In this document: piece after piece, positions 12,290 to 40,164 of the stretch | Layout: the number at the start of each line of letters is the position of its first letter | Position numbering within the stretch: position 1 is the stretch's first letter | NCBI RefSeq assembly: GCF_041248615.1 | Contig: NZ_CP158425.1 | DNA: 64,000 bases | Reading direction: 5' to 3' (one strand) | DNA from: Escherichia coli | GTDB taxonomy: Bacteria; Pseudomonadota; Gammaproteobacteria; Enterobacterales; Enterobacteriaceae | Position numbers and translations under genes: made by a program | The notes under the pieces: generated by a model | What the model was told of the DNA's origin: nothing | The model's input: the letters and a program-made list of their open reading frames with translations, nothing else | Databases searched by the model: none

Positions 12290-12309
12290 TTGGACGCACG
12301 AAAGGCGGC

Positions 12310-12699
12310 ATGAACACCAAGCTTCATGCCGTAACGGATGCGAGTGGTCGCCCGATCAGCTTCTTCATAACGGCAGGCCAGGTCAGCGATTACACCGGTG
12401 CTGCCGCCTTGCTTGATGAACTTCCCAAGGCCAAATGGTTGCTGGCCGACCGTGGCTATGATGCCGACTGGTATCGTGACGCTTTACAGGCGAAGGGGAT
12501 CACTCCCTGCATTCCAGGTCGAAAATCCCGCAAGAAGACCATCAAATACGACAAACGCCGCTACAAACGGCGCAACCGGATCGAGATCATGTTCGGGCGT
12601 CTCAAAGACTGGCGGCGTGTCGCTACGCGTTACGACCGGTGCCCAATGGCCTTTCTCTCCGCCATCGCTCTCGCTGCGACCGTTATCTTCTGGCTATGA
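12310..12699 (+). CDS. IS5-family transposase, C-terminal ORF (DDE)
   Basis: 129 aa, ...LADRGYDADWYRDAL... DDE-domain portion; likely joined to OrfA by frameshifting. Confidence 0.75.
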   Translation: MNTKLHAVTDASGRPISFFITAGQVSDYTGAAALLDELPKAKWLLADRGYDADWYRDALQAKGITPCIPGRKSRKKTIKYDKRRYKRRNRIEIMFGRLKDWRRVATRYDRCPMAFLSAIALAATVIFWL

Positions 12700-12719
12700 G
12701 CAATGAGTCCTGACCCTAG

Positions 12720-13318
12720 CGCATATCAAGCCAGAGGAGCCTGAGGTACTTGGTCTTTTAGCCCTCATGGAACTCCAGTGCTCTCGGCTGCTTGCCCGAC
12801 AAGATCGTCAAGGCTTGCCAGTGCCGCTCGATCGTCAGGATCGTGGCTTGTGGGATCGATTGCTCATACGTCGAGGTCTGGAGATAGTTGAGCGAGCATG
12901 CCGCATGTCGTCTCCCACTGGATGGTATCTTCTGCAAGCGTTGATTTCTGCTTGTCACGCGCGGGCTGCGAGCTTTCGAGACACCAATTGGCGAGAGATA
13001 CTGGCGAGATATGACGCGCTCTTCCTGTTGAGCCCTACATACGTAGTTGCCCTCAATCGAGCAGTCGCTGTGTCGTGGGCCATGAACCCCGCTGCAGGGA
13101 TGGCGGTCCTTAAGGCGATTGAGGACGAGTGGGACGTGGAGACCTACCCGCTTTTTCACGCGACGCGGGCGGATTTCCTTTCGCGTCTTGGTTTCCAAGA
13201 CCAAGCTGCGGCAGCCTATCAGGCTGCGGCCGTACTCAGCACCAACCTACCTCAAAAGTTGTTCTTGGTCACGCGCGCTGAGGAATGCCTGGCAGGGTCT
13301 CGGACAGATGTTGGATAA
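12720..13318 (+). pseudogene. ECF-type RNA polymerase sigma factor, C-terminal domain fragment (GC-rich)
   Basis: YLLQALISACHARAASFRDTNWREI...VVALNRAVAV resembles C-terminal extension of ECF sigma factors; N-terminal sigma regions absent. Confidence 0.45.
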
Positions 13319-16554: not shown

Positions 16555-17415
16555 CTAACCGGAAGGCTCGCAAGAGCGCTGGGCGGCTTCGTGTGCTGGC
16601 ACGATCGGAGTGGCTCCGAAGTGCTTCTCAAGATAGGTGACGCCGAACGTCACGATGTCCTGCGCGTCGAACAGGTAGCACTGAGCAAAGCCCACGACAC
16701 CTTCTCGATGGCGACCGAGCTTCACGTAAGCATTTGCTATAGTTTCGACCGCATCCGGCTTTCCTTCGATAGCAAAGCAATCGAGAATGCCGTTTGAATC
16801 GTATTCTGATGCCGTTTTCCAGGCGACTTCACCGTTTCTTCCAAGCATCGGCATCTCATACGTCACCCATCGTTTGTTGGGGATATCCGCAACCGCCTCG
16901 GCGTAGTGCAATGCGGTAACGGAGTTTAGCGGCGCACCCAACAGCAGGGCCTTCCCGCCAAGGCGGACGAACCGCTCGACGGGCGACCCTTCCCCCAAGG
17001 CGTGACCGAGTTCGTGAGGCTCCGTCAGCGTTTCAGCTAGCGGACCAACCGCGACCATCGATGCATCGGGGTGCGCGCTGCGCCGCGCGCCGGGGGCTTG
17101 AACCAGAAATTGATTCAGCAGGCCGAACCCACGGTAAGTCCCGGCCGTTGCGGGATCGAACGGCGGCCAGGTACGGCGGGCTTTGTCATCCAACCGAGCG
17201 CCATTCAGAGTCTCCTCGTAGGGTGATCGGTCCCACGACGCGTATCCCATCACAGTGCCAGTCGGCCCAACCGCGGAGCGTAACGCGGCAACGACCGTCT
17301 CCGCTCCTCCTTCGACCGGACCAATCGCTTTAAGTGAGGCATGCACCATCAACAGGTCACCGGTTTGGACTCCGAGTTTTCGAATTGCCTCCGTTATTGC
17401 CTTCCGCGTATGCAT
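16555..17415 (-). CDS. aac(3)-II: aminoglycoside N-acetyltransferase AAC(3)-II (gentamicin resistance); sub-variant not resolved
   Basis: 286 aa MHTRKAITEAIRKLGVQTGDLLMVHASLKAIGPVEGGAETVVAALR... matches AAC(3)-II family. Confidence 0.92.
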   Translation of the reverse strand: MHTRKAITEAIRKLGVQTGDLLMVHASLKAIGPVEGGAETVVAALRSAVGPTGTVMGYASWDRSPYEETLNGARLDDKARRTWPPFDPATAGTYRGFGLLNQFLVQAPGARRSAHPDASMVAVGPLAETLTEPHELGHALGEGSPVERFVRLGGKALLLGAPLNSVTALHYAEAVADIPNKRWVTYEMPMLGRNGEVAWKTASEYDSNGILDCFAIEGKPDAVETIANAYVKLGRHREGVVGFAQCYLFDAQDIVTFGVTYLEKHFGATPIVPAHEAAQRSCEPSG

Positions 17416-17491
17416 CGCGATATCTCCTTTTAAATTAAAAATGAAGTTTTAAATCAATCTAAAGTATATATGAGTAAACTTGGTCTGACAG

Positions 17492-18364
<873 letters not shown>

Positions 18365-19215: not shown

Positions 19216-19230
19216 GTTGGAGTCATTACC

Positions 19231-20737
19231 CTCCCCTCAAAGCCATATCACGTACGTTAATCCTGACTTCATTAAAATCAGTGGTTTCACTGAGGAAGAA
19301 CTATTAGGCCAGCCTCACAACATCGTAAGACACCCAGATATGCCGCCTGCTGCATTTGAGCATATGTGGAGTACATTAAAATCTGGCCGCTCATGGATGG
19401 GGCTAGTAAAAAATCGCTGTAAAAATGGCGACCACTATTGGGTAAGTGCTTATGTAACGCCAATAGCTAAGAATGGTTCGATTGTTGAATACCAGTCTGT
19501 AAGGACCAAGCCTGAACCTGAGCAGGTTTTGGCTGCGGAAAAATTATATGCTCAATTGAGAAGCGGGAAGGCCGCGAGGCCGAAATTGGCTGCTAGCTTT
19601 TCCGTGAAAATACTCTTGCTCATATGGGGTAGTATTATATCAAGCGCAATGGCTGCCGGCATGCTTACTGATACATCAATAAGCAGCTTATTGTTAGCCA
19701 CTTTAATGTCAGGAAGCTTAAGCTCTGTTAGTGTTTTGGCTATTCTCTCTCCTCTTGGAAGACTGGTTGAAAGAGCCAGGAATATTTCCAATAACCCATT
19801 AAGTCAATCCCTCTACACTGGGCGCACCGATGAGTTTGGCCAAATAGAGTTTGCTTTACGAATGATGCAAGCTGAAACAGGCGCCATAGTAGGTCGCATA
19901 GGTGATGCATCAAATCGGCTTAGCGAACACACCCGAGGCCTACTAAAGGATATTGAGTCAAGCAATGTACTTACAGTTGAGCAGCAGGCAGAGACAGATC
20001 AAATAGCAACGGCAGTAAACCAAATGGTGGCAAGCATTCAAGAGGTTGCGAGCAATGCACAGCATGCTGCAGATGCGGCCGGAAGAGCAGACACTGAGAC
20101 GGCATCTGGCCAGCGTCTGGTAGCCCACACAAGCCAGTCAATCACTGCCCTTGAAGGTGAAATTAGGCAAGCCACTCAGGTTATTCATGAGCTTGAAGGT
20201 CAAAGTAACGAGATATCAAAAGTTCTTGACGTTATACGAGGGATCGCCGAGCAAACGAATTTGTTGGCACTCAACGCAGCAATTGAGGCCGCGCGTGCTG
20301 GTGAGCAGGGGCGTGGTTTTGCTGTTGTCGCCGATGAGGTTCGCAGTCTTGCTGCTCGCACACAGCAATCGACAACGGATATTCAAAGCATGATCAGCGC
20401 TCTACAAGAGCGAGCGCAATCCGCTGTTACAGTCATGGAGCAAAGTAGTCGGCAAGCGCACACGAGTGTAGCTCACGCAGAGGAAGCAGCTACAGCTCTT
20501 GATGGAATTGGCCAACGCGTTAACGAAATTACCGACATGAACGCGCAAATAGCGACTGCGGTCGAGCAGCAGGGAGCAGTAAGTGAAGACATAAACCGCA
20601 GTATTATCAATATACGCGATGCTGCTGATACCAATGTACAGACCGGGCAGAATAATTTGCAAAGTGCGAAATCTGTCGCTCAGTTAACTAGCGCTCTGAG
20701 CGAACTGGCAAAACAGTTTTGGGAAAAACGAGGATAA
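19231..20737 (+). pseudogene. aer: aerotaxis-receptor-like PAS/methyl-accepting chemotaxis protein, 5'-truncated by IS1
   Basis: [16 protein letters not shown] segment and MCP signalling domain resemble Aer; first ~25 codons missing, frame starts at the IS1 boundary. Confidence 0.7.
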
Positions 20738-23673: not shown

Positions 23674-24916
23674 TATTAACGGGGCCTATGCGGCATTTGA
23701 GTGTGCGATGGATCCCAAGCTGGCAAAAAAGCCGCTCATCATAGCCAGCAATAACGATTCGTCCGTCATTGCAATGAATAAACTGGCTAAAAGCGTTGGT
23801 ATTAAGCGTGGGACCCCAATTTTTAAGTGCAGGGATTTGATTCAGCAACACCAGATCGAAGTCCGGAGCTCTAACTTTACTTTGTATGAAGACTACTCAA
23901 ATCGCTTCCATGAAACGCTGGAAAGCTTCGCGCCTCAATCGAGTCGATATAGCATAGATGAAAATTTCATGTTATTGAAAAACATGAACAAGATAATAGA
24001 TTATGAAGATTACGGCCGGTTGATCAGAAGTACACTTCTTCATAATCTGTCCCTTACCTGTGGTGTGGGGTGTTCAAGCACCAAAACCCTGGCTAAATTA
24101 TGCACCTATGCGAGCAAACGATGGGCAGCTACAGGCGGGGTTGTAGTTTTGACTGATCAGGCCAGGATCAGGAAGCTCCTGGGCCTTATCAGTACCAGAG
24201 AAATATGGGGTATTGGTCAAAAGATCAGTGAACGCCTGTCGGCTTTCGGGATCATCACTGCCGGTGATTTTTATAATAGCGACGTTCGCTTTTTACGTAA
24301 AAGCTTTGGCGTTGAAATCGAGCGTACCTGGCGGGAACTGCATGGCGAACCATGTTTCCGGCTGCATGAATCCCCTCCTGTCCGGCAACAGATTATCGTT
24401 TCCAGAAGTTTTGGTCAGCGCCTTAATGAGATAGGCAAGCTACATGAGGCAGTTTCATTTTTTACCGCCCGGGCGGCAGAGCAGCTGCGCAAGGATGGCT
24501 CGTGGACCCGTCAAATCACAGTCTTCATTCAGAGCAGCAATTATGCGCAAGGTGAAAACCGCTACAGCAATTGTGGTATCGAGCCGCTTACCGCTACACA
24601 GGACACCCGCGATCTGGTTGATGCAGCCATGACCATCCTGAACCGCATTTACAAACCCGGGATAGCGTATGCGAAAGCTGGGGTAATGCTCTCCGCTATG
24701 ACTGACGGCACAGAGCAACTCAGCCTGTTTGATGAGCGCCCGGCCAGGCCTGGCAGTCAGGCACTGATGAAAGTTATGGACCGGTTCAATAAAGAAAAGC
24801 GCGGAGCTCTGTTTTTGCTGGGGGAAGGCATTCAACAGGATTTTCGTATGAAACAGGCCATGCTATCACCGAGATATACGACCCGCTGGGATGAATTACT
24901 CGTTGTAAAAGCGTAG
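23657..24916 (+). CDS. umuC: UmuC/MucB-like Y-family DNA polymerase
   Basis: 419 aa; N-terminal D..NGAYAA, SIDENF, and C-terminal LSPRYTTRWDELLVVKA resemble UmuC. Confidence 0.9.
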   Translation: MYMHVDINGAYAAFECAMDPKLAKKPLIIASNNDSSVIAMNKLAKSVGIKRGTPIFKCRDLIQQHQIEVRSSNFTLYEDYSNRFHETLESFAPQSSRYSIDENFMLLKNMNKIIDYEDYGRLIRSTLLHNLSLTCGVGCSSTKTLAKLCTYASKRWAATGGVVVLTDQARIRKLLGLISTREIWGIGQKISERLSAFGIITAGDFYNSDVRFLRKSFGVEIERTWRELHGEPCFRLHESPPVRQQIIVSRSFGQRLNEIGKLHEAVSFFTARAAEQLRKDGSWTRQITVFIQSSNYAQGENRYSNCGIEPLTATQDTRDLVDAAMTILNRIYKPGIAYAKAGVMLSAMTDGTEQLSLFDERPARPGSQALMKVMDRFNKEKRGALFLLGEGIQQDFRMKQAMLSPRYTTRWDELLVVKA

Positions 24917-24961
24917 CGGCCATGACCGGCATGGCCGTACTCATCAAAAGTGAAAGTAACT

Positions 24962-25771
24962 TTAGGCCCCGCGAGCTTTTTCGATTGCGCCCTGCAAAGT
25001 TGCTGCGTCCATAGCCCCGGGGATAAATGTGGTAGTCGCCGCATTCGGCTTTTTCATATTCATAATGATGAAGCCGGGTGTGCCGGTGATCCCAAGCGCT
25101 TCGCCCAGCTGCATGTTGCCGGAGATCACGTTTTCATATCGGTTTTTTTCCCTGTCAGAAAACGTGCTGTTAAACCCTGACTTATCCACCACAGTATTAA
25201 AGTCGCTGAGTTCGAATTTGCGTTGAGAGGTCATGAAGGTATGAGCCACAGCCATCAGGTTGTTGTGGTATTTACGATAGGCTTCAGCACCGAAATTCTG
25301 ATAGACGTGCAGACCCGTAGCGGCCCCCATGGCAGATACAGGTTTTGAACCGGCAAAAATCGGGAATTCTTTAAAGAAGAATTTTACATCTTTGCTCTGA
25401 TTCATTACCGATTCAACAACAGGTGTAACCCGCATGCAGTAAATACACTGATAGTCGAAGAACTCGATTACCGCGACGTCGGCGTCATCCGGGCCGATGT
25501 TTGGCGTCTCCTTGGTATCCAGCAGAGCTGGCGCATATGGAATTATTCGTTCCACTGAGGCACTTACGTTCTGATTTTCCAGCGCCTTACCTGCTTCCAC
25601 TAAATAATGGGGATTTTTTACCAGGTAAGTAGCGGCAATTTTGCCAATTTCTTCCTCACTGAGCACCTTCGGTTTAAAATAAGTTGCCGCGATTAACGCC
25701 GAGGCAGCGGTAGCAATTACCGCAGAAATTAAAATCGTGGCCATCGGTTTTAAATAAAATTCTTTAGACAT
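24962..25771 (-). CDS. DsbA-family thiol:disulfide oxidoreductase-like protein
   Basis: 269 aa with CIYC (CxxC) active-site motif and N-terminal membrane anchor. Confidence 0.65.
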   Translation of the reverse strand: MSKEFYLKPMATILISAVIATAASALIAATYFKPKVLSEEEIGKIAATYLVKNPHYLVEAGKALENQNVSASVERIIPYAPALLDTKETPNIGPDDADVAVIEFFDYQCIYCMRVTPVVESVMNQSKDVKFFFKEFPIFAGSKPVSAMGAATGLHVYQNFGAEAYRKYHNNLMAVAHTFMTSQRKFELSDFNTVVDKSGFNSTFSDREKNRYENVISGNMQLGEALGITGTPGFIIMNMKKPNAATTTFIPGAMDAATLQGAIEKARGA

Positions 25772-25877
25772 AGCTACCTTTATGCTTTTCAGCCTGTTAG
25801 TTATTAACCTGCGATGGATTATACTGGCCCGGTAAATCGGAATTATTCGTGAAACAATGCTTTTTGGAGATTAAAGG

Positions 25878-26489
25878 ATGATTAGGCAGGGCTTTATACT
25901 CACAACCGCAATGCTTTTGAGTGGTTGTGGATATCATTTCGCAAACCAGGTAGATGCGTACGATCTAATGCCTCGTCCTGTTACAAATAAAAGGTTTCAG
26001 ATAGTCCCTCCGGACGAAAGTATTCAGTCCAGAATGTTTTCAGGCCGTTTTGCTGATGGATTAGCAAAAAAAGGAGTCATTATTTCCACTCACCAGCCAG
26101 ATTATGTGCTCAGGTTCCGAATGAGCAGCTCACAGGAGAACATGCAGTATAGCGAGCAGCTTCTTACTGGGGTGACAGGCTACGTTGTAGATAAAAAGAC
26201 AACGAGAACTGACAAGCATGGCGAATCGCATACTGACTATGACTACAGGCCGGTCGATGGGGTAATAGGCACTGAGACGATGTCGCAGATGCACTATATG
26301 CGACAGCTGGATGTCGAGGTATACCCGTCAGCGAAAGGAGCAAAGCAGGTTCTGAAAGTGAGTATGCAAAGCAATGCACCTGTGCCGTCAGACAGCATTG
26401 CTTATTCAGCAATGATCGACGCCTTTACTGATAAATTTGATGCGCCGCTGCGTTCCGGAAATTATGTTGCAGTGATCCCCTGGAACTGA
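25878..26489 (+). CDS. hypothetical lipoprotein
   Basis: Lipobox LLSGC at residues 13-17. Confidence 0.5.
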   Translation: MIRQGFILTTAMLLSGCGYHFANQVDAYDLMPRPVTNKRFQIVPPDESIQSRMFSGRFADGLAKKGVIISTHQPDYVLRFRMSSSQENMQYSEQLLTGVTGYVVDKKTTRTDKHGESHTDYDYRPVDGVIGTETMSQMHYMRQLDVEVYPSAKGAKQVLKVSMQSNAPVPSDSIAYSAMIDAFTDKFDAPLRSGNYVAVIPWN

Positions 26490-26548
26490 AAGCAGACGGC
26501 GGGAAGAGAATGTTCAAAAGTGACTTTTGGACACGCACATAAACGTGG

Positions 26549-26971
26549 CTATCGCCCTCCCCCATTAAAATCATAAAGTCGGTAAAGATCGCCCATCGTG
26601 ATGGAATTGGGCTTATTAATGATTAGATACTGTAACTGTTCTTTATGTTGAGTACTGGCGGCTGCATTCATAAGCACTTCCAGGTAGAACTTGTAGCCTA
26701 TGCTTCGCTCTGAATACATATACTGGAACTGCAACAGTAAAATGCCTGACATAACATACAACAGCAGCAGACTGAGTAACACAGTGCTATCAGGCTGTTC
26801 CAGTGCCATACTGACATACCCTGAACCCAGAATGCACAGAAGCCAACCCGTCATTAGAGCAGGCACCCTACGACTCAGACGTTCATAACAACGTTTTATT
26901 ACGGGATCCCGGAGATACTTTTTGTCAGGTATCCCCGTTGCCCTGATGACGAAGTTACTGAGTATCGACAT
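26549..26971 (-). CDS. hypothetical membrane protein
   Basis: 140 aa ORF with hydrophobic segments. Confidence 0.4.
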   Translation of the reverse strand: MSILSNFVIRATGIPDKKYLRDPVIKRCYERLSRRVPALMTGWLLCILGSGYVSMALEQPDSTVLLSLLLLYVMSGILLLQFQYMYSERSIGYKFYLEVLMNAAASTQHKEQLQYLIINKPNSITMGDLYRLYDFNGGGR

Positions 26972-27004
26972 CTTTTTTCCTTCTGGACGCTCTCAGTCAA
27001 TAAA

Positions 27005-27403
27005 TCAGGCCAGGCGCTCATTGAAAGCTACCACGAGCTGCGAATCGGGATTTTTTACCAGTTCGGGCCGGATAACTTTTAGTTGCCTCGTTGGGGCGAG
27101 CTCATCTGTAGGCCTGATGGTGGTATTACCCGGCCCCTTGCGGGTACTGTCGGTGTTTACCTTGAGCTTTTTATTTCCCAGGTAGCTTTCCATCTTTTTA
27201 GAGATGGTGTCACCTGTGGTCGCAACACCAGAGAGTTCCTTTAGTTGTTCACCTTGATCCATTTGTACCGATGACATCAGAAATACGATTCCTGGATCGT
27301 TTTCCGTTCCACAGGCTCCGTACTGACATTGTGCAGCGAAAACGGGCTGTACACCTACAGCAACCAGCATTAACGTACTCAGTAAAGTAGATTTCATACA
27401 CAC
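27005..27403 (-). CDS. hypothetical secreted protein
   Basis: 132 aa, signal-peptide-like N-terminus ending VFA. Confidence 0.45.
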   Translation of the reverse strand: MCMKSTLLSTLMLVAVGVQPVFAAQCQYGACGTENDPGIVFLMSSVQMDQGEQLKELSGVATTGDTISKKMESYLGNKKLKVNTDSTRKGPGNTTIRPTDELAPTRQLKVIRPELVKNPDSQLVVAFNERLA

Positions 27404-27416
27404 CTCTTACAGTCGG

Positions 27417-27429
27417 AAAAGTTACTTTT
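27417..27429. repeat. AAAAGT-N-ACTTTT motif instance (AAAAGTTACTTTT)
   Basis: Perfect; overlaps dsbC-like stop codon, 14 bp upstream of next gene start. Confidence 0.6.
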
Positions 27430-28171
27430 GCGCAGCGCCCATTTGGGTCACCAGGTTTTCCGGGCTCAGCCACCCCGTAAATAACTGCGGTTTGCCGCTT
27501 AGTGTCACCATGGTAGGAGTACCTTGCAGCGGGATTGTTGAGGCCACCTGGAAATGCGATTTGATAATGTTTAAGCAAGCCTCATCAGGACGTCCTTCCG
27601 GGATAGTTGAAACCGGATTCATCGCTGCATCCAGAGCTTCGTTTGGCTTTGCTGAACACCAGATTTTGGCCATGTTCCCGGCTACTACCGAGTTCAGTCC
27701 TGCACGTGGGAATGCAAGAAACTTAATCGAAATACCGGCATCAAGATAAGACTTCAGATCATGATGCAGTTTTTGGCAGTATCCACAGGTTATATCGGTA
27801 AAGATAGCAAGCCGGTATTTTTCGTTTGGTGATTTGTAGTCGATGGATTTTGTTTTGGATGCGAATTCCCGGACGCCCATTAAAATGGCCTGCTCAGTGG
27901 TGTTTACCACATCTTTACCTTTCACGTGGAATAAGCTTCCGGTAAAAATGTAATCTCCGTCTTTGCTCACGTAACTTACCCCCTCCCTGGAAATCACCGT
28001 AAAAATATCTTTTACTGGCGAGGGTTCGACGTGCTCGATTGAAAGCCCAATGGCTTTGAGCTTATCCCGGGCTGCATCTGGCAGTACCATTGTATTAACC
28101 GGCTCGGCATTCATCGTGAAGGCGGTACTTAATGAAAGAAGTAATACCGATGCCTTAATAATTTTTTTCAT
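27422..28171 (-). CDS. dsbC: DsbC-like disulfide isomerase
   Basis: 249 aa; signal peptide; FTDITCGYCQKLH active site and overall similarity to DsbC. Confidence 0.85.
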   Translation of the reverse strand: MKKIIKASVLLLSLSTAFTMNAEPVNTMVLPDAARDKLKAIGLSIEHVEPSPVKDIFTVISREGVSYVSKDGDYIFTGSLFHVKGKDVVNTTEQAILMGVREFASKTKSIDYKSPNEKYRLAIFTDITCGYCQKLHHDLKSYLDAGISIKFLAFPRAGLNSVVAGNMAKIWCSAKPNEALDAAMNPVSTIPEGRPDEACLNIIKSHFQVASTIPLQGTPTMVTLSGKPQLFTGWLSPENLVTQMGAAQK

Positions 28172-28318
28172 TTATGCTCCTTGAATCGAGCACTAATATT
28201 ATCACGCCCAAAAATTCCAGAATTTTGCTTAAACGCTTAAATCAACGGGTAAAGCCGAAAGAAAGTCGATAGATATATGGGAGAATAGATAAAACGTAGA
28301 TTCAGTGGAGAAATCGTT

Positions 28319-28858
28319 GTGTTTACACCACCAGCAGATGATGTGAAACCTATTCCCGTTCCTGATGAGATTTACACTCAGTGCATTACGGATGCCGCCC
28401 GCTTCTTCGGAATTGATGCCGAACTGGTTTTTACGTTGTTTGACAATGAAGGCGGTAAGGTTGGTACTTTCAGCAGGAATACTAACGGCACTTATGATAT
28501 TGGCCCGATGCAGATCAACTCATCCAATCTGCCTGAAATAAAAAAGCATTTCCCGACTGTAACGTGGCGGGTTCTGGCTTACGATGCTTGCGCTAGTTTC
28601 TGGGTTGGAACATGGTGGCTCTACAGAAAAATTGTTGATCGCAAGGGCAATGTGTTTGAAGGGATTGCAGATTACAACAGCAAAACCCCAAAGGTACGTG
28701 CAAAGTACATATTTAACTTCATGGTAAAGTACAATCGCCGGATCCAGCAGCGTAACGGGATGGGTGAGCTTTATCAATGGACCCAACAACCTCCTCGATA
28801 CAATGGCCATATAGCTAAAAATGTCCCGGAGCAAAACCCGACTCCTGTTGTTAAATAA
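28319..28858 (+). CDS. lytic transglycosylase (transfer-associated, Slt domain)
   Basis: NEGG...GPMQIN motifs typical of plasmid X/Orf169/P19-type lytic transglycosylases. Confidence 0.7.
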   Translation: MFTPPADDVKPIPVPDEIYTQCITDAARFFGIDAELVFTLFDNEGGKVGTFSRNTNGTYDIGPMQINSSNLPEIKKHFPTVTWRVLAYDACASFWVGTWWLYRKIVDRKGNVFEGIADYNSKTPKVRAKYIFNFMVKYNRRIQQRNGMGELYQWTQQPPRYNGHIAKNVPEQNPTPVVK

Positions 28859-28940
28859 ATTCAACCTGATATTACAGAAGATCATCGAGTAGCTTGGGTA
28901 CCCCCCCGCAAAAAATTCGCATAGACTCAGGGGTAATAAA

Positions 28941-29507
28941 TTGTCTTTTTCTGCAAGAAATATATTTAAGATTCTCTCTTCTTTCTTGATGCAGAAAAGC
29001 CCTCTTCATGAAGAAGTATGTGTTCCTGAAGAAACAACAGCTGGTTTATGGGGCCCTCTCCCTGATTCGCATGTCGTGCTTTTCTTAGATTTCGATGGGG
29101 TTTGTCACAGGTGCAAAAATGAAACCTTTGAGCGAATGCCATTGGTGGAAAAATTACTGGATAAATGCCCTTCCATGGTGATTGTCATCTCCAGTTCGTG
29201 GCGTGAATGTGCCAGTATAACTTACCTGAAATCTCTTTTCCGGCTACCTTATAGAGACAAAGTCATAGGTGCTACCGATTCGGTATATTTAAAACCTAAT
29301 CAGTCAGGTGTGCGGGCTGCTGAGTGTGAGGACTTTGTATTTTCACATCGAGTTAAAGCATTTATCTGCCTTGATGACGACGAATCATTATTCCCGGTCG
29401 GTTATCCACATTTGCAAAAAACCAATTATTACACCGGCCTCACCGAATCTGATCTTGCAGCTCTTAACACCAGGTATCATCTGCTTATGAAACGTTGGGC
29501 TTCCTGA
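28941..29507 (+). CDS. HAD-superfamily-like hydrolase (tentative)
   Basis: FLDFDGV (DxDG) motif I, SSS motif II and CLDDDE motif IV-like. Confidence 0.4.
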   Translation: MSFSARNIFKILSSFLMQKSPLHEEVCVPEETTAGLWGPLPDSHVVLFLDFDGVCHRCKNETFERMPLVEKLLDKCPSMVIVISSSWRECASITYLKSLFRLPYRDKVIGATDSVYLKPNQSGVRAAECEDFVFSHRVKAFICLDDDESLFPVGYPHLQKTNYYTGLTESDLAALNTRYHLLMKRWAS

Positions 29508-29614: not shown

Positions 29615-30904
29615 TTAAGCTTGCTGCTCAGTTTGGTTCCGGTGCTGAAAAACCTGCCAACGGTGCTTTAGGAATTCAGTATTGATGGGTTTACGCAGCG
29701 GCTTAATAAACTCTCCTTGATATGCCGCTAAATCATGATCTACCGCCAAAGCTTCAGCGAGAATGTTAACCTCCAACGTCACCGGATGAATGGCAATCAT
29801 GTTTGCGTCGAAAAGATCGTGTATATCATGGCGTAAGAGCAACCCATTTGTATAATGGTCTACTCCTCCGTTACGATGCTCCATCAGATGAGCAGCCTCA
29901 GTGCGCTGGCGCAGTCTAGAGCCTGTAATCACACATTGGTCATAACAGTTGTTGCGGACGGCTTCTGCAAATGAGGCCTGATCTGGTCGTGTCTCGACAG
30001 TTGTCTTACTACCCTTACGCTTACCCGGTACAGTAGTTTCATCAGGAATATTCGGCTGAAGCTCCTTTTCTTCTATACCATCAGTCTTCATAGCGACCAT
30101 AATCGCGGCCGGTGGAGATTTAGGCTGATCTTCCTGCGATCTTTCGCGGCCACCAACTGGATACCCTAGAAAACCCTCAATGATCTCTAGTGGAGGTAAT
30201 GTAGCGTTTGAACGTGCATAAATAGCGAACTCTGCGGCACGTCCGCCGGGAATATATCTACGTACCAGTATTGGAAGAGAGGCTTCTTCATCTGGTTCCT
30301 CTTTTTCCGACAGGATTATTCGTTCGGTGAGACGGGCTGAATTTTTTTTCATTTCACTCAACAGTCTATTGCGTTCTTTTACCTTTCGGTCATTATCCTC
30401 CAACATCTTACGATGACTAACCTTAGCCAGATGGTCTTCCAGTTCCTGTATATATTCGGGATCGATAGTGTCAATTAGACCGAACGCCATCAACCGCTCC
30501 CCCCTTGTTTTACAAGATTCTAGCCGAACGCGAATGTACTCCTTACGCTTGGCCATCAAATGTTCTTTTTGTTTTTTTTCTCGAATTACACGGAGCTGAG
30601 TATTGTAATTAGAATAAACGGTTTCGCTATTCTGCTCTGTCTCTAGAGCAAATTTTTGTAGGTGTTCACGTAGTTTTTTACGGGTATTTTTGGGGGCATG
30701 CATTACGGTACGCTCAATGTATGAGCCTGTGCAGCGTAAAGAAAGTACAGTTTCAGCATGGGAATAACCAGCATTGAGACGATAGCGGGCAATTTTAAGC
30801 AAATTATTAAAGTGTGCACCATTACATATACCTAGTTCTTCCAAGACACGACGTTCTCTATCATTAATAGATGGATGGTTAATATCTTTTACTTTGTTTG
30901 CCAT
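29615..30904 (-). CDS. HNH endonuclease-domain protein with long coiled-coil N-terminal region
   Basis: C-terminal CVITGSRLRQRTEAAHLMEH...VDHYTNGLLLRHDIHDLFDANMIAIHP matches HNH_2-type motif. Confidence 0.65.
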   Translation of the reverse strand: MANKVKDINHPSINDRERRVLEELGICNGAHFNNLLKIARYRLNAGYSHAETVLSLRCTGSYIERTVMHAPKNTRKKLREHLQKFALETEQNSETVYSNYNTQLRVIREKKQKEHLMAKRKEYIRVRLESCKTRGERLMAFGLIDTIDPEYIQELEDHLAKVSHRKMLEDNDRKVKERNRLLSEMKKNSARLTERIILSEKEEPDEEASLPILVRRYIPGGRAAEFAIYARSNATLPPLEIIEGFLGYPVGGRERSQEDQPKSPPAAIMVAMKTDGIEEKELQPNIPDETTVPGKRKGSKTTVETRPDQASFAEAVRNNCYDQCVITGSRLRQRTEAAHLMEHRNGGVDHYTNGLLLRHDIHDLFDANMIAIHPVTLEVNILAEALAVDHDLAAYQGEFIKPLRKPINTEFLKHRWQVFQHRNQTEQQA

Positions 30905-31084: not shown

Positions 31085-34000
31085 CTACCTTTTATTTTCA
31101 TTAAGCCACTGATCCGCTTTATCGACACGTGACTGGTAAGGCTCATTTGTGTTGCTCAGCTCTGACTTCATGTACTGAATGAATTCATCTGCTTTCTGAG
31201 GCCCAAAGCGTGGGTCATCCGTCAATTGCTGCCGGATAGCCCTTTCAGAGTTCTGCGCTGCATTCGCATAAGTCGAAACGCCGTCGCTGCTAATACTCTG
31301 ATACCGGTCACTTACAGCTGCGACGCCATCAGACATCTGCATGTGATTAAGGACTTTACCCTGGAGAGAATCAGGCATATTTGCAGGGTTAGAGGCATCA
31401 TTTGCTATCGATGTCTGGGTTTGAAGGATGCCCGCTCCCGTAAGCATCTCATTTACCGGTTTCGCCCCAACGCTGGTTAGCGTATCCGAAACAAATTGCT
31501 GGCCCCCGAGTAGCGCACCAGAAATCGCGCCCCGCTCAGTGTTGGCCTCTATCTTTTCCCCAACCAAGCGATCTGTGACGGTCTGAGTGCGGTTACCAAC
31601 GAGACCACCGCCCGACCCACCCTCTCCTAGGTTTGCCCGTACGACTGACTCAAGTGAACCATCAGCTCTGTTATGAGTGTTGAAACTGCTATGGATGCTC
31701 TGAACGTCATTCATACTCCAGTTAACGTTATAGTTACCCAGTTCATTAAGGATCTTCTGGGTATCCGCTTTGAGCTGCTCTCTTTCGGCACCGGTAGCCA
31801 TGGTGCTGGCACCATAGGTAAAGACAGCTTGCTGTGCCAATTCAGCTCGCTTATCGTCCCGGCTTAAGTTCGGGTTGTTGGCAACACGACTAAAGTAGTT
31901 ATCAGTGTTATTAGATAAGCCACGAACTTGACCGCTCTGATACATACTGTTCAAAGCAGTGGCTCGTTGATCCATTCCATCACCAACCACCCGACCTCCG
32001 GTAGCCTTTTCCAGATCGTTAAATGTGCCTTCTGCATTTCTGACATCCTGACCTGAATTGACGACTTTCTCTACACCCTGATTATTCAGTACAGGGCCAT
32101 TCGTTTTGAGAGAATTGAGCACATTCCTTTCTTCATCAGAATAAGTGCGGCCCACGTTGTTGTTATGTATTCCCTGAATATCGCCTTTGCCCGCGTTATC
32201 AAGGTTATACGGAGTAAAGCCAGCTTCACTTTTTCCAGGGACACGCTGAGTCGCGTCCTGAGCGTTGGAGGAAAGACCGAGTTTAGCCTGCGAATCAACA
32301 CTTCCACCCAGTTCCCCTACGCGTGACGCACTCATCACGCCAGACGTATTTACGCTGTCAGGAGTTCTATCCTGTGCCTGAGTGATAGTATTAATTCCTG
32401 ACCCTTCGCCTGAAATTCTGTCGAGCTGATTGGTGATAGGTAGCAGCTGCTGTGCATTACCACCGAAGTCGGAAACCAGACTTTTAAGCAGGCTGGAGGT
32501 TTCACGGAGATCCTGTTTATTACTTTCGGCCGTCTCTCCCCGGGCGGTATCAATCGCAATTTTTTGCTCACTGAAATCTCGTGTTGCAGCCACAAGCGCG
32601 TCAGTACGTTGAAGCTGCGAACCAAGCTGATTACTGGCCTTGAAGGTATCGTTATAGGAGTTAAATTTCTCCATAAACGCATTCTCATCCAGCCCATTCT
32701 TACGAGCAAAATTCCTTACATCATCATCACTGAAGTTTTTGTTGCGAATAGAATCGGAGAACCTGTCCAGGTTAATGCTTTGTTTAGAATCAAGGCTCAT
32801 TCCACTATTGGAGCTGGCGTTAGTCGATACCGATGTAGAAATGTTTTGCGCCATCGTCTGTGTCGCCTGGTTCATTTTCGACGATGCTTCTTTAAACGCA
32901 TTAGTATTGGATATCTGATCGCTGCTTACCTGAGACGCCGCTTTACTGAACTGGTCAGTCAAAGCAGAATCCTGGCTAAGCTGATTCGTGATTGCTTTTG
33001 AAAGGTCATTTGAAAGCGAGTCACTGCCTGTATTGGTCTTAGATGCGCCGCTACTCAATTGCCCTGCTACAGCTGCTTTCAGCCCGGCTCCGTTGCCAGT
33101 TCCAGCACCTCCATTAAGCCCAGCGTTTAGAATAACATTTGAAGCAATGCTGGCCATCTGAGACGCACTCACCCCATGTTTCGTTGCAATACCTTCTGCT
33201 ACAGAGGCACCAATCTTATCCGAGATCTGCTTCATTGTTTGCAGGTTGGTTGAGAACTGCTGGCTCGACTGTCCTGACCTTCCAATTTCACTCATCTGAC
33301 TGTAACCAGCCTGGAATGAATTACTTGCCGCACTCATAACTGATGAGGTTACAGCTGATCCTTGCCCCTGGCTGTTAGCGATACTTGAACCAGCATTCCA
33401 CATTCCAAGACGGAAATTACTTGAATCAACTGCGCCGCCATCGCTGTATCCCTGACCGGTACTGGTCAAGGCGGTTCGTGTCACGTCACCAAATGAAGAT
33501 TTACCGCTGTTAGGGCCATCCCATACTTTGGGCGTTACATGACCAGTATCCACCGGCGCATCGGGGGTCACTCCCTTAACCGCATTCATCATCGGGTGAA
33601 TCGACTGTGTCATCAGGAATAATGTGAGTACCGGAATCAGAGCATAAAGCGCGGAAGCAACAGACAGGTATGAACTGTATGTTTCCGCAAGCCCTGGGAG
33701 CCCCATCCACGTGACGGCATTATTCTGGCTGTTGAGGGTGCTCCAGGTATCCAGATCGGCCGTCGCGACTTTCTTCACATACGCGTTGACCATTACTGCC
33801 GTAAGCGGCCACATATTCACGAAGAGAATAAGTTGCAAATATTTCGCCGCAGCGGCAACACCATTACCACCTAACGCCAGCAGCATAAGCAAAGCAAATG
33901 GAGCAACCATGTAAGCAAACATCTCAAGGAATGCGATTGCTGCTCCAGACAGTTGTAACCACAACTGGCCCTGTGAAGCCATTGTGTTGGTTCGCTTCAG

Positions 34001-35038
34001 AGAAGCCTCAAACAACTGCATATCGGAAGCCAGACCGAGTGGGGTCTTATATTTGCTTGCGCCATTTCTGAGCTCATTCATTATGAACAGGTTCAGGGTG
34101 GCGTCATACGAACCAATAGCCTTACCGTACATACCATTTGCTGACGCCATAACATCAGTAAAACTTGCGCCGGTAGGTGCACCATTTGCTTCGTCTGGAG
34201 TAAGGATGCCGTTTGTCTGTCCTATAAGGGAAATAGTCTGGCGAGCTTCAGCTGTACTGGTAACCTGTTTCACAGTTGACCAGACCTCATCACACGTACC
34301 AGATTTTGAACCGTTAGCGCCAACAATACTGGCAGAGGCATTCTTCAGTGCGCCTTTCATCGCCTGATTAATCCGGTCCATGCTATCTGCCAGATTAGCT
34401 GAGAAAATATCGTTAAAAATAGTTTCTTTACCGGCAATATTTGCGCTTGAGTTTTGGGTAGCCTTCAGGCAGTTGTATGCAAGAGACTGAACGGTAGCAC
34501 ATACGTTCATTGGCCCTAGCCCGCTGGCCGGTTCAGGAAATGCAGAACAGTAGCCCTGGCTATCGCCGCCCCATTGCAAAAACTTCACGAATCGGATCAT
34601 CGGACCGAGGGTGATGTCATCGTCCAGAGTTGTTGCAGACAGGTCCACCGGAGAAAGCGGATCAAACGCAGTTTTATAATCCTTCAGCAAACCCTGGCTT
34701 AAGTTAGTGGTGACGGTGGCCATCGCAGCAATAAAAATTGGAATTCCGTCGACGTTTCTGACCTCTCCCGACTTTACAGATTCAATAGTTACATCCACTC
34801 GAACCATTGCCATCATGAAAAGGATCAACCCCAAAAACCAGGAGAAAAACGGTAATTCATTTTTGGTCGGAGCCTGAAGCCATAGCCACGTTTTATAGAA
34901 TAGGCTCACACCTGCTACAACGGCGGCCGTGGTCAGGAACTCTTTTACACCAGTATATTGAGAAAAGATTAGGGCAATACCGGTAAAAGCCGACCAGACA
35001 AAATCAATATCACCCAGGGTATATATGTTGTAATCCAT
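31085..35038 (-). CDS. traG: F-type conjugative mating-pair stabilisation protein TraG/TrhG (large, N-terminal polytopic membrane domain)
   Basis: 1317 aa; N-terminal multi-TM TraG_N-like region; follows TraH as in F-like/IncHI systems. Confidence 0.85.
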   Translation of the reverse strand: MDYNIYTLGDIDFVWSAFTGIALIFSQYTGVKEFLTTAAVVAGVSLFYKTWLWLQAPTKNELPFFSWFLGLILFMMAMVRVDVTIESVKSGEVRNVDGIPIFIAAMATVTTNLSQGLLKDYKTAFDPLSPVDLSATTLDDDITLGPMIRFVKFLQWGGDSQGYCSAFPEPASGLGPMNVCATVQSLAYNCLKATQNSSANIAGKETIFNDIFSANLADSMDRINQAMKGALKNASASIVGANGSKSGTCDEVWSTVKQVTSTAEARQTISLIGQTNGILTPDEANGAPTGASFTDVMASANGMYGKAIGSYDATLNLFIMNELRNGASKYKTPLGLASDMQLFEASLKRTNTMASQGQLWLQLSGAAIAFLEMFAYMVAPFALLMLLALGGNGVAAAAKYLQLILFVNMWPLTAVMVNAYVKKVATADLDTWSTLNSQNNAVTWMGLPGLAETYSSYLSVASALYALIPVLTLFLMTQSIHPMMNAVKGVTPDAPVDTGHVTPKVWDGPNSGKSSFGDVTRTALTSTGQGYSDGGAVDSSNFRLGMWNAGSSIANSQGQGSAVTSSVMSAASNSFQAGYSQMSEIGRSGQSSQQFSTNLQTMKQISDKIGASVAEGIATKHGVSASQMASIASNVILNAGLNGGAGTGNGAGLKAAVAGQLSSGASKTNTGSDSLSNDLSKAITNQLSQDSALTDQFSKAASQVSSDQISNTNAFKEASSKMNQATQTMAQNISTSVSTNASSNSGMSLDSKQSINLDRFSDSIRNKNFSDDDVRNFARKNGLDENAFMEKFNSYNDTFKASNQLGSQLQRTDALVAATRDFSEQKIAIDTARGETAESNKQDLRETSSLLKSLVSDFGGNAQQLLPITNQLDRISGEGSGINTITQAQDRTPDSVNTSGVMSASRVGELGGSVDSQAKLGLSSNAQDATQRVPGKSEAGFTPYNLDNAGKGDIQGIHNNNVGRTYSDEERNVLNSLKTNGPVLNNQGVEKVVNSGQDVRNAEGTFNDLEKATGGRVVGDGMDQRATALNSMYQSGQVRGLSNNTDNYFSRVANNPNLSRDDKRAELAQQAVFTYGASTMATGAEREQLKADTQKILNELGNYNVNWSMNDVQSIHSSFNTHNRADGSLESVVRANLGEGGSGGGLVGNRTQTVTDRLVGEKIEANTERGAISGALLGGQQFVSDTLTSVGAKPVNEMLTGAGILQTQTSIANDASNPANMPDSLQGKVLNHMQMSDGVAAVSDRYQSISSDGVSTYANAAQNSERAIRQQLTDDPRFGPQKADEFIQYMKSELSNTNEPYQSRVDKADQWLNENKR

Positions 35039-35046: not shown

Positions 35047-36462
35047 TCAGTTACGTGTGCCACGAATACTTTCAGTGAAAGCCTTCCGTTGCAGGCGACG
35101 GTTATCCCAGGTTGAAATGACGTCCGAGCTGGTACCGACCTGGCTGTGCGATAGCTCATAGGCGGCTTTAACCTGTTTTGAGAGATTGTCTGTTAATCGG
35201 TTGAGATCATCCCTTTTACCCGACAGCGACTCACTCGGTATGCTCATGGTTGAAATTTTGGCCTCAACCTGGCGCAACATGTTGATTACGAGGCTCGTCG
35301 CAGCAATAGTGCTTATGTCCTGAATGTATGCGTACCCTTCCGGTGCTTCGAATGTTTGCAAAGAGTCGATAATGGTCGGGATGCCGATATAGGAGATAAT
35401 GCGTAATTCATCATCTGAAACACGAACGTCGTTGATGATTTTTTTCTGTACGTTTAAAAGAAGATCAGAAATGGTATCCTTCAATCCCTTAAAACCACCG
35501 TCATTAACTTCTGACATGACAAGGCACTGAGCCTTTCGTGGGGATGATGGATCTGGTGCCGGAGAACACTTGAGCATTTTAATTGATCCGCCAGCTGGTG
35601 GCCCCATGATGTAATCCGTGACAGTCATGGTAGACGGGCGGACTTCCATTCCCGCTTTTTCGCCTTTGCTATCCCAGTTGATAATGACAGTACCCACGAG
35701 AGACATAAGTTGTTCTGCCAATTTATAACCGGATAACTCCGTTACCCCTCCGATGTTCATTGTTCCCTTATCAATATCCATGAACGACATATAGAAGAGG
35801 TTACCACTGAATTTTTCAGCGAACTCTTCGGGATCCTTTGCTTTAACCTGAGAAGTGACAGCTTCAGGTGACTTTGTCATCGATGAGCCAAAATCAGGAA
35901 TGAGACCATTAATCGATCCCAGAATTGAGGCTGGTCCAGAGCTAACTGAGTTAGCGAACTGGCTTGGCGTACCCACGTTTTCAGAAAGGAAAGAGTAAGT
36001 TGCATTGCATGAATCTTTCGCAAATTTATTTAGCGCTTGCAGTTTGTTTTGGATGTCATTAATCGTTGCAGCACAGTCAGCACAAATAGCTGAAACAGCA
36101 ACGTTAAAAGCATAGATAGCCGCACCCTGGGCAATACCACGGGCCACCTGCACAAGCTGGTCCCCGTTGATCATGCTGAAGGACCCAAGAAAAACGTCAA
36201 TACCATTACAACCGACAGAAGCTTTTGGAAACGACATGGAAACAAGGTTGGTATTAACGTTTGTTGTTCGGTAAGACATTGACCCGCCAACTATGCCTGT
36301 ACGGGTTGCTGTGGAAAAGGTGGCCGGGCTGGTAGACGTCATCATGCCATTGAAAATGTTACGCATTGCGTTGTCTGCATTTGCAGTCGGGGCTAAAATT
36401 GCAGCACAAACAGAAAGAGACAAAAGTAACTTTTTGAAGTTGAAAACGGCATTACTGCGCAT
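35047..36462 (-). CDS. traH: F-type conjugative pilus assembly protein TraH/TrhH
   Basis: Signal peptide MRSNAVFNFKKLLLSLSVCAAILA; TraH-like sequence; ATG at 36462 has GGAGG upstream. Confidence 0.85.
   Translation of the reverse strand: MRSNAVFNFKKLLLSLSVCAAILAPTANADNAMRNIFNGMMTSTSPATFSTATRTGIVGGSMSYRTTNVNTNLVSMSFPKASVGCNGIDVFLGSFSMINGDQLVQVARGIAQGAAIYAFNVAVSAICADCAATINDIQNKLQALNKFAKDSCNATYSFLSENVGTPSQFANSVSSGPASILGSINGLIPDFGSSMTKSPEAVTSQVKAKDPEEFAEKFSGNLFYMSFMDIDKGTMNIGGVTELSGYKLAEQLMSLVGTVIINWDSKGEKAGMEVRPSTMTVTDYIMGPPAGGSIKMLKCSPAPDPSSPRKAQCLVMSEVNDGGFKGLKDTISDLLLNVQKKIINDVRVSDDELRIISYIGIPTIIDSLQTFEAPEGYAYIQDISTIAATSLVINMLRQVEAKISTMSIPSESLSGKRDDLNRLTDNLSKQVKAAYELSHSQVGTSSDVISTWDNRRLQRKAFTESIRGTRN
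36422..36434. repeat. AAAAGT-N-ACTTTT motif instance (AAAAGTAACTTTT)
   Basis: Perfect; inside the traF/traH overlap (traH signal-peptide codons). Confidence 0.5.
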
Positions 36463-37498
36463 AAGTGCCTCCAAAACTGCCGCCAGCATTGAGATAATTG
36501 ACCGGATCGGCCGTAGGCATGTCATAGCCTTCGAGTTTTTGGTCCATTATTTTTTGAAGTAAGAATGGGTCTGATTCCATTTCGGATTTATTAACGGTAA
36601 TAACGCCATCATCACCGATGGTATATTGCCTTTTAATATCTAGAGTTGACTGAAACGAAGCGTCATCGATCAGATTCATGCCCTTCGCGGCAAGTATAAT
36701 AGTGTTCTTTAATTCATCAGCGGAGATCATGCCTTCACTAATGCGCTGAGCTGATGTCCCATCCTTTGAAACCAGGAAAATTGTAGGTACCTCTCGAATT
36801 TTAAATTGATCAATAATTTGTGCATTGGGGATGTTAAAATCCTGAAAAAGGCCATTATGCAATGGCCTTCCATCCATACTGATTGGAAGAATATCTACCG
36901 AATAATAGTTCTGCATAAATTGAAGTATTTGGCTCTCTTCGTGGCAAAACTGGCAAGTACTCTGGAAAAAGAAAAATAAACCTGACTTAGTAAAGATATC
37001 TTTCATTACCGTTTGCTGATTTTTTTCAACAACAGTGCGGTGAGCATCCAGTGCCACCTTTTCCACTGGTTGCCTGCGTTTTTCAGACATCATCGGGTTT
37101 TTAAGAAAATAATCTTTTGATTTGTCAGAAAAACGCGTACTGATATCCAGCATTAACCTTTGCGCCGTGTAATAACGTGATAGATTTTCTGCGGTAGGGT
37201 TATCCATTGCCTGCGTTAACAGTCGAGGCATATTCTCTTTTAGCCATTTTGAATTTAAATCTACCTTTTCCTCTTTTGAAGGCGAGCTAGCAGCACCGGT
37301 TGGTGGCAAAACCTTTTCTTCTTCAGCTTCGCTTTTTTTAGCAGGATCGTCATACCAGAAGAAACCCTTCTTATAAGCCTGGCCTGATACAAAGGGCGTA
37401 TCTTTTATTAGGGGTTGCTCAGGGCTGGCGTGGGCACCAGTAATTACCAAAGACATAAGCAAAACCATCTTTGAAGGCGCTAATGCAATACGAGTCAT
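36452..37498 (-). CDS. traF: F-type TraF/TrbB-like thioredoxin-fold pilus assembly protein (CxxC)
   Basis: 348 aa with CQFC motif in a thioredoxin-like C-terminal domain; AAGGAG upstream of the ATG. Confidence 0.8.
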   Translation of the reverse strand: MTRIALAPSKMVLLMSLVITGAHASPEQPLIKDTPFVSGQAYKKGFFWYDDPAKKSEAEEEKVLPPTGAASSPSKEEKVDLNSKWLKENMPRLLTQAMDNPTAENLSRYYTAQRLMLDISTRFSDKSKDYFLKNPMMSEKRRQPVEKVALDAHRTVVEKNQQTVMKDIFTKSGLFFFFQSTCQFCHEESQILQFMQNYYSVDILPISMDGRPLHNGLFQDFNIPNAQIIDQFKIREVPTIFLVSKDGTSAQRISEGMISADELKNTIILAAKGMNLIDDASFQSTLDIKRQYTIGDDGVITVNKSEMESDPFLLQKIMDQKLEGYDMPTADPVNYLNAGGSFGGTYAQ

Positions 37499-39733: not shown

Positions 39734-39898
39734 CATAGGATCACTAAACAAAGAAAAGTGACCCTATGAATGCCTCACATAGGGTCACTTATGTTTGAAA
39801 AGTGACCCTATGTAATGTCGTCATAGGGTCACTTTTTATAAAAGTGTCACTATGGACAAAGTTCCATAGGGTCATTTTTTTTGGAAAAGTGGCACTAG
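39734..39898. repeat. array of about 43-bp-periodic imperfect palindromes (AAAAGTGACCCTATG-N9-CATAGGGTCACTTTT); candidate oriT/operator region
   Basis: Three full palindromes at 39754-39790, 39797-39837, 39841-39880 plus half-sites at 39734-39745 and 39883-39898, in the 760-bp divergent intergenic region before the relaxase operon. Confidence 0.5.
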
Positions 39899-39966
39899 AT
39901 ATATGTATAACTTTAATAGAGCAATGCACATTATCAAAAGCAATAATCCACAATGGTCATTCCCTC

Positions 39967-39979
39967 AAAAGTAACTTTA
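39967..39979. repeat. AAAAGT-N-ACTTTT motif instance (AAAAGTAACTTTA)
   Basis: 12/13; oriT-candidate intergenic region, other side of the palindrome array. Confidence 0.55.
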
Positions 39980-40164
39980 GAGGGTAGCGATGGAAGTGAG
40001 GCTAAACTCGCTGTTACTGTTTCTGAAGGCCCCTCCCGAATGGGGGAAACAGCGAGTGCATTACATCTGTTCAATTCCCTCATCAAAGAGCATTCAAAAA
40101 TCTTCTGTTCGTGAAAAAAAACGGAAATTTCCTCCGGTATAGTAATTTCACATCAGGAGGCGTC

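Follow-up and report, generated by a model that had tools for sequence, protein, structure and literature searches.

A group of plasmid genes for periplasmic thiol-disulfide oxidoreductases was analyzed in a 64,000-nucleotide stretch of Escherichia coli DNA (RefSeq assembly GCF_041248615.1, contig NZ_CP158425.1; referred to below as the window), which, judged from its sequence, is the well known backbone of an IncHI2 resistance plasmid. A DsbA-family gene and a DsbC-like gene lie 3–6 kb from the mating-pair genes trhG, trhH and trhF, with SLT, HAD and HNH genes in between, and TrhF is itself a thioredoxin-fold protein with a CxxC motif. It is likely that these proteins serve as accessory periplasmic folding helpers for the H-type conjugation machine (mating-pair formation type F, MPF-F), topping up the DsbA and DsbC of the host.

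An earlier note on this DNA had pointed to CIYC, CGYC and CQFC oxidoreductases beside the mating-pair genes, and all three motifs were located there, on the minus strand and in proteins of thioredoxin-fold families (Table 1). The 4.4-kb stretch around the Dsb genes showed 100% identity to plasmids of E. coli, Salmonella, Enterobacter and Klebsiella. It was matched by 1010 plasmid records, 1000 of which are predicted to be conjugative, and a representative match, pSTM6-275, is typed as IncHI2A with a MOBH relaxase and MPF_F mating-pair formation.

Classification of the DsbA-family protein

The DsbA-family protein (269 amino acids) contains two cysteines in all, C109-I-Y-C112, and matched Pfam DSBA (PF01323) at 72 bits (cutoff 25.6) as well as Thioredoxin_4. 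In an AlphaFold2 (AF2) model with a mean predicted local distance difference test score (pLDDT) of 88.5, the CxxC lies at the N-terminus of helix 110–125, directly after strand 99–105. This is the canonical thioredoxin active-site position, and the motif is therefore not a chance one. By inspection of the sequence, its N-terminus is either a signal peptide or a membrane anchor, after which a helical arm of ~45 residues precedes the catalytic domain; ~70 residues separate the first strand from the signal region. The predicted helices 39–52 and 54–83 align with the N-terminal arm of BcfH from Salmonella Typhimurium.

BcfH (7JVE) was also the best match among PDB sequences (E = 1.5e-35), followed by trimeric Proteus ScsC, Caulobacter ScsC, an oxidoreductase of the "27 kDa outer membrane protein" type, Wolbachia alpha-DsbA2 and Salmonella ScsC. 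Among the hits of this search at E <= 0.01 there was no chain under the name E. coli DsbA, and the DsbA-named matches were weak, reaching E = 7e-5 at best. With the AF2 model as query, Foldseek gave BcfH first, over the full length, and then the Proteus mirabilis and Caulobacter ScsC proteins, with target-normalized TM-scores of 0.84–0.88 to ScsC catalytic domains. A BLASTP comparison with BcfH aligned 236 residues at 31% identity, the alignment starting inside the N-terminal helices. Assignment as a classical monomeric DsbA of the E. coli type was rejected, given the N-terminal extension, the active site (CIYC versus CPHC) and the lack of close similarity to E. coli DsbA. Taken together, sequence and model place the protein with BcfH and ScsC, not with classical DsbA. 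The label "DsbA-like" used earlier thus holds as far as the Pfam family and the CIYC motif go, but not in the sense of an E. coli-type oxidase. Because BcfH and ScsC act as isomerases or bifunctional enzymes, a clean division into an oxidase plus an isomerase is not established. By analogy with BcfH, the protein is probably oligomeric through its N-terminal helical arm.

Across 42 homologues down to 25% identity, both cysteines were invariant and the T-P loop was kept in at least 90%, with a variable XX dipeptide between the cysteines. This pattern argues for selection on redox chemistry, and it makes very improbable the idea, which follows a proposal made for F TraF, that the protein is mainly a redox-independent chaperone or structural part of the mating apparatus, with the CxxC of minor importance. 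Such a role would fit the poor conservation of the dipeptide, which is CHFC in IncHI1 and CIYC in IncHI2, and it has a precedent in F, where, according to published work, TraF is essential although it lacks a CxxC, and a chaperone role is discussed for TrbB. The dipeptide of the DsbC-like protein also differs between the two plasmid groups (CGFC in the IncHI1 plasmid R27, CGYC here), and these differences, as read from the sequences, could shift the redox potential.

Homologues of the 269-residue protein were found on 3233 plasmids, of which 2464 are predicted to be conjugative and 615 non-mobilizable. One of them, ~38% identical, is encoded at positions 8914–9702 of an Enterobacter IncFIB/FII plasmid (L004), where it lies distally in a tra region of the F type, at its end, between traD/traI and repA; genes of the BcfH/ScsC type are thus attached to classical IncF transfer operons as well.

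The DsbC-like protein and TrhF

The second oxidoreductase, a protein of 249 amino acids, opens with a typical Sec signal peptide on sequence inspection, as does TrhF. It carries the active-site cysteines C129-G-Y-C132 plus a second pair, C172/C199. The N-terminal dimerization domain, Pfam DsbC_N (PF10411), was matched at 51.6 bits (cutoff 25) over residues 32–89, and Thioredoxin_2 at 59.8 bits. Its PDB matches were the DsbC proteins of Yersinia, Salmonella, E. coli and Haemophilus (E = 1e-43 to 1e-36). In the alignment with Salmonella DsbC (35% identity), the CGYC motif and the G-T-P cis-Pro loop (QGTP) coincide, and C172/C199 fall on the two cysteines of the structural disulfide (C141–C163 in E. 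coli). The score against the NCBIfam DsbC equivalog NF008129 was 178 bits, under the cutoff of 215, which marks the protein as a diverged plasmid paralogue and not the housekeeping DsbC. On these sequence features it is a genuine full-length DsbC paralogue, and its earlier description as DsbC-like stands.

TrhF scored 175 bits against Pfam TraF (PF13728) and 329 bits against the NCBIfam "TraF-like" model TIGR02740 (cutoff 232). It is the known "redox-active TraF", which has kept its CxxC, unlike F TraF. A fourth CxxC enzyme, HtdT, is encoded in the Tra2 region of R27. No HtdT or other Tra2 genes were found in the window; htdT is carried by IncHI2 plasmids, at 81% identity to R27.

R27 orthologues and the link to conjugation

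The window is syntenic with R0126–R0135 of R27, where the order is trhF, trhH, trhG, HAD, SLT, thioredoxin-fold protein, two small open reading frames (ORFs), lipoprotein, DsbA-family gene and umuCD. Against R27, both Dsb genes, the lipoprotein gene and trhF gave a proportion of nonsynonymous differences (pN) of 0.09–0.18, and that of synonymous differences (pS) was saturated at ~0.76; these genes have therefore been maintained as coding genes by purifying selection.

Expression of the orthologous block has been measured in R27 by microarray, in which R0131 is labeled dsbC and R0135 dsbA (PMC7366339). At 25 °C in an htdA mutant, R0130 was induced 20.6-fold, R0131 13.0-fold, R0132 8.1-fold, R0133 10.3-fold, and R0134 and R0135 6.0-fold each, along with tra; the adjacent mucB and mucA rose only 1.5- and 1.3-fold, and no induction was seen at 37 °C (PMC7366339). 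The permissive temperature of 25 °C also raised R0135 and R0130 ~3-fold over their levels at 37 °C (PMC7366339). In the text version of Table S4 of that study, the gene names for Tra2 appear to be at least one row out of step with the R-numbers (R0027 is htdT in Table S3 and htdV in Table S4), so values were taken by R-number only. The co-derepression with tra supports the proposal that the plasmid encodes its own periplasmic thiol-disulfide oxidoreductases linked to transfer.

Genetic data come from the R27 orthologue of the DsbC-like gene. According to secondary accounts, deletion of R27 dsbC lowered conjugation ~10^4-fold, only in a dsbC-null host (Elton et al. 2005, via PMC10838148 and PMC11315126). 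Since the phenotype appears only when host DsbC is missing, the plasmid enzyme is redundant with the host enzyme and not independent of it.

The earlier suggestion that the transfer apparatus brings its own disulfide machinery rather than relying on the host did not hold up on this point. Its strongest form, a self-sufficient plasmid system in which a DsbA-family oxidase and a DsbC-like isomerase work with no dependence on host DsbA or DsbC, is distinctly unlikely. Each plasmid does encode four CxxC thioredoxin-fold proteins, BcfH-type enzymes can be both oxidase and isomerase, and two relatives on other elements have non-redundant roles: on Rts1, more than 100-fold of transfer depends on Orf206, related to R0135 by the authors of that work, and SXT S054 is also required, both even in dsbC+ hosts. 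Against such independence stands, besides the host-dependent R27 phenotype, the absence of a DsbB-, DsbD- or ScsB-like membrane partner among the genes of the block (the rest of the plasmid was not scanned), the sole membrane protein there having no conserved cysteine pairs. The plasmid enzymes are presumably recycled by host DsbB and DsbD, as F TrbB requires host DsbD. Moreover, the oxidase activity of trimeric ScsC in E. coli was seen only with a compatible partner or under oxidizing conditions.

Genes between the two Dsb genes and candidate clients

Three genes lie between the Dsb genes, for which searches of Pfam, NCBIfam and PHROGs returned no family match. They had been described as coding for a lipoprotein and secreted proteins that may be substrates of the oxidoreductases. 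One lipoprotein and one secreted protein were indeed found, but the third product is a two-helix membrane protein, and of the three only the secreted protein could fit the role of substrate. The lipoprotein was excluded as a disulfide substrate, because its only cysteine is the lipid-modified Cys17 of the lipobox.

The 140-residue membrane protein (pN 0.37 versus pS 0.72 against R27) was considered as a DsbB-like partner and rejected, having two transmembrane helices and only C46 in common with its R27 orthologue. On its sequence, it is neither a disulfide client nor a DsbB-like partner.

The small secreted protein has a C-x4-C motif directly after its signal peptide, CQYGAC here and CQFGAC in R27, and both cysteines were invariant in an alignment of 17 homologues. 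Its family comprises 28 protein clusters, with named members from Enterobacterales and some on plasmid-sized contigs, and the gene is always immediately downstream of the dsbC-like gene. An AF2 run on the 17-sequence alignment gave no usable model (pLDDT 53). The conserved motif and the gene position suggest that this protein might be a client or partner of the Dsb enzymes. On a pLVPK-type plasmid, a non-homologous-looking gene in the same position also encodes a C-x4-C motif (CGPVAC).

The cysteine-rich mating-pair formation proteins are likely far more obvious clients than the products of the intervening genes, by analogy with F, in which the presumed TrbB clients are TraN, TraU and TraH. 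Their R27 counterparts contain 32 (TrhN), 16 (TrhU) and 8 (TrhH) cysteines, counted in the precursors. TrhH is probably a disulfide client; its longest ORF in the window encodes 8 cysteines, of which 6 lie beyond the signal peptide, and disulfides have been described in its F counterpart, TraH. TrhG has 4 cysteines in its N-terminal region.

Proposed role in H-type conjugation

The region would represent the distal end of an accessory block associated with IncHI Tra1, orthologous to R27 R0129–R0135. In this block, the SLT enzyme would open the peptidoglycan, the DsbC paralogue, as a dimer, would reshuffle wrongly paired disulfides, and the BcfH/ScsC-type enzyme may add oxidase and/or isomerase capacity. 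TrhF, with its CxxC kept, and the Tra2-encoded HtdT would be the third and fourth enzymes. The clients would be TrhN, TrhU and TrhH, and possibly the C-x4-C protein encoded after dsbC. All of these enzymes would plug into the host relay, with DsbD keeping the isomerases reduced and DsbB/quinone acting as oxidant. Topping up host DsbA and DsbC in this way could buffer transfer across hosts and at the low temperatures of IncHI conjugation.

Several observations weigh against this role. In wild-type R27, the levels of R0131–R0134 at 25 °C and 37 °C were within 2-fold of each other, and many non-tra genes were also induced in the htdA mutant (PMC7366339), so that co-derepression is no proof of a role in transfer. 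The function of R0135 was stated as "unknown" in the 2024 literature, and the published experiments concern the R27 orthologues. The ScsC_N trimerization domain of Pfam, carried by many relatives, scored below threshold in the 269-residue protein (15.8 bits versus a cutoff of 25.8), so its oligomerization is suggested solely by the similarity to BcfH. R27 TrhF reportedly lacks Dsb-like complementation despite its CxxC. Finally, the non-mobilizable virulence plasmids of the pLVPK type keep an intact DsbA-family gene, with a truncated dsbC; the benefit behind this retention could be unrelated to conjugation.

These last plasmids, in which IS1 cuts dsbC, also speak for a different explanation, in which the Dsb genes are cargo that benefits the host (envelope folding, copper or oxidative stress, fimbriae or virulence factors) and lie beside tra incidentally. 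Of the closest characterized relatives, ScsC serves in copper tolerance and BcfH in a fimbrial operon, nearly a fifth of the homologue-bearing plasmids (615 of the 3233) are predicted to be non-mobilizable, and umuDC, a cargo-type function, abuts the DsbA-family gene. Set against this are the position beside trhFHG, kept in both IncHI1 and IncHI2, the derepression in the htdA mutant, which ends exactly at the mucB boundary, the conjugation phenotype of R27 dsbC as given in the secondary accounts, and the prediction that 2464 of the 3233 plasmids are conjugative. On Rts1, moreover, the R0135-like gene lies directly upstream of traL and is required for transfer. The tra-side synteny, HtdA-dependent expression and Rts1 data make cargo the less likely explanation, and we consider it unlikely overall.

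Within the preferred reading, accessory folding helpers for conjugation, a more specific version can be put forward tentatively. In this version, which we hold to be possible though doubtful, the R0135-type protein would be an oxidase/isomerase dedicated to MOBH/MPF-F systems, oligomeric and perhaps tethered to the membrane, forming a folding module for TrhN, TrhU and TrhH together with the DsbC paralogue and the C-x4-C mini-protein. If this were so, the module could allow efficient IncHI transfer at low temperatures, and also out of hosts whose own Dsb system is poor or incompatible.

Plasmid-borne disulfide machinery of this kind is already known, and its presence here is an ordinary finding. 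The principle that thioredoxin-fold isomerases come with the F-type transfer systems themselves goes back to 2005, when the DsbC and TrhF orthologues were characterized; reviews cover the plasmid-borne thioredoxin-fold proteins, and hundreds of records already annotate exactly these genes. What is added is modest: the placing of the IncHI "DsbA", from sequence comparison and modeling, among the BcfH/ScsC-type proteins, a conserved C-x4-C mini-protein that travels with the DsbC paralogue, and the exclusion of the lipoprotein as a client. Resistance genes, mcr and NDM among them, have major vehicles in the IncHI2 plasmids, and any factor needed for the transfer of these plasmids is a potential target against conjugation; Dsb enzymes are already pursued as anti-virulence targets.

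Gene layout of the region

In the direction of the window, umuDC is followed by the DsbA-family gene (-), the lipoprotein gene (+), the genes for the small membrane (-) and small secreted (-) proteins, and the DsbC-like gene (-). After these come the SLT (+), HAD (+) and HNH (-) genes, trhG, trhH and trhF (-), and then the oriT/relaxase side of Tra1 (Table 1). The SLT gene and the dsbC-like gene are transcribed divergently.

Table 1. Positions and features of the genes in the Dsb and trh region of the window, with amino acid identity to their R27 orthologues
Product	Position	Strand	Features	R27 orthologue
DsbA-family, BcfH/ScsC-type thioredoxin-fold oxidoreductase, 269 aa	24962..25771	-	Active site CIYC (25436-25447)	R0135 "dsbA", 75%
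Lipoprotein, 203 aa	25878..26489	+	Lipobox LLSG-C17	R0134, 69%
Small two-helix membrane protein, 140 aa (longest ORF; PGAP shorter)	26549..26971	-		R0133, 45%
Small secreted protein, 130 aa from conserved Met	27005..27397 (27005-27403 in gene-order list)	-		R0132, 58%
DsbC-type periplasmic disulfide isomerase paralogue, 249 aa	27422..28171	-	Active site CGYC (27776-27787)	R0131 "dsbC", 84%
SLT lytic transglycosylase, TrbN/IagB-like	28319..28858	+	Pfam SLT; NCBIfam TrbN 82 bits	R0130 "bfpH", 90%
HAD-domain protein	28941..29507	+	Pfam HAD_SAK_2	R0129, 65%
TrhG, TraG_N mating-pair stabilization/entry-exclusion type	31085..35038	-	Pfam TraG_N	TrhG, 76%
TrhH, TraH family	35047..36525	-	Pfam TraH 194 bits	
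TrhF, TraF-family thioredoxin-fold protein, 348 aa	36452..37498	-	CQFC = C182-Q-F-C185 (36944-36955); V-P loop	TrhF, same CQFC, 84%

In IncHI2, the HAD gene and trhG are separated by a gene for an HNH-endonuclease-domain protein of 429 amino acids (29615-30904, minus strand). R27 has no HNH gene at this position, the HAD gene directly following trhG, and the gene has the look of an insertion into the Tra1-distal block that is specific to IncHI2. A consensus scan of 24800–29000 (4.2 kb) found no sigma-70-like promoters, against an expectation of 6.4 ± 2.6 from shuffled sequences; three divergent or convergent gene junctions fall within this stretch. Expression that depends on an activator (TrhR/TrhY-type) or is controlled by H-NS would be compatible with the absence of such sites. 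Further upstream, between the resistance region and the backbone, a gene at 19217-20737 (plus strand) encodes an Aer-like chemoreceptor of 506 amino acids from a TTG start, with PAS, HAMP and MCP signaling domains.

Comparison with known systems

The closest characterized relative of the 269-residue protein, BcfH, is encoded in the bcf fimbrial operon and is a trimeric, bifunctional thiol oxidase/disulfide isomerase that oligomerizes via a long N-terminal helical arm. The two proteins share a DsbA-type catalytic domain and a G-T-P loop, and their alignment takes in the N-terminal helical arm. BcfH differs in being chromosomal and fimbria-associated and in its active site (CSWC versus CIYC). 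Its signal peptide is clearly cleavable, whereas the hydrophobic segment of the IncHI protein is longer and its cleavage uncertain; BcfH is a trimer, a state that the IncHI protein may share, to judge from the similarity. A DsbA fold with an N-terminal oligomerization helix is found in the isomerases ScsC (P. mirabilis, 4XVW and 5ID4; Caulobacter, 7RGV) and Wolbachia alpha-DsbA2. The ScsC systems differ in serving copper stress and in having a dedicated ScsB partner, the like of which is missing from the IncHI2 block.

F resembles the IncHI plasmids in encoding periplasmic thioredoxin-fold proteins within an MPF-F system, and the cysteine-rich TrhN, TrhU and TrhH parallel its TraN, TraU and TraH. 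According to published work, F TrbB and host DsbC are redundant as disulfide isomerases, and deletion of trbB lowered conjugation 10-fold, only in dsbC-null hosts. F combines a CxxC-less TraF with a small monomeric TrbB, whereas the IncHI plasmids combine a CxxC TraF with full-length DsbC-type and DsbA-type proteins.

A remnant of the module is present on one strand at 7590-11658 of pJX6-1 (L003), a non-mobilizable, hypervirulence-type IncHI1B/FIB plasmid of Klebsiella pneumoniae. It consists of an IS1-truncated dsbC-like gene, two small ORFs, the DsbA-family gene, two further ORFs and the HAD gene. The DsbA-family protein is intact (318 aa, CHFC, 43% identical), and the transfer genes around the remnant are largely gone.

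DsbA/DsbC-family genes in or beside tra operons are also carried by other MOBH/MPF-F elements, namely Rts1 (Orf206 and Orf212), SXT (S054) and IncA/C plasmids (DsbP). Their products differ from the IncHI proteins in being distant in sequence and encoded at other positions of the tra region. Orf206 matched the 269-residue protein weakly (E = 2e-6 over 54 residues), and IncA/C DsbP (4ML1) matched the DsbC-like protein at E = 4e-12. Around tra, Rts1 (L006) carries four CxxC thioredoxin-fold genes, at 4222-5130, 11970-12815, 17193-17939 and 39796-40887, which encode two DsbA-family proteins (CPFC and CPYC), one DsbC-family protein (CPYC) and a TraF-like protein (CKLC). A set of four CxxC thioredoxin-fold proteins is thus common to Rts1 and the IncHI plasmids.

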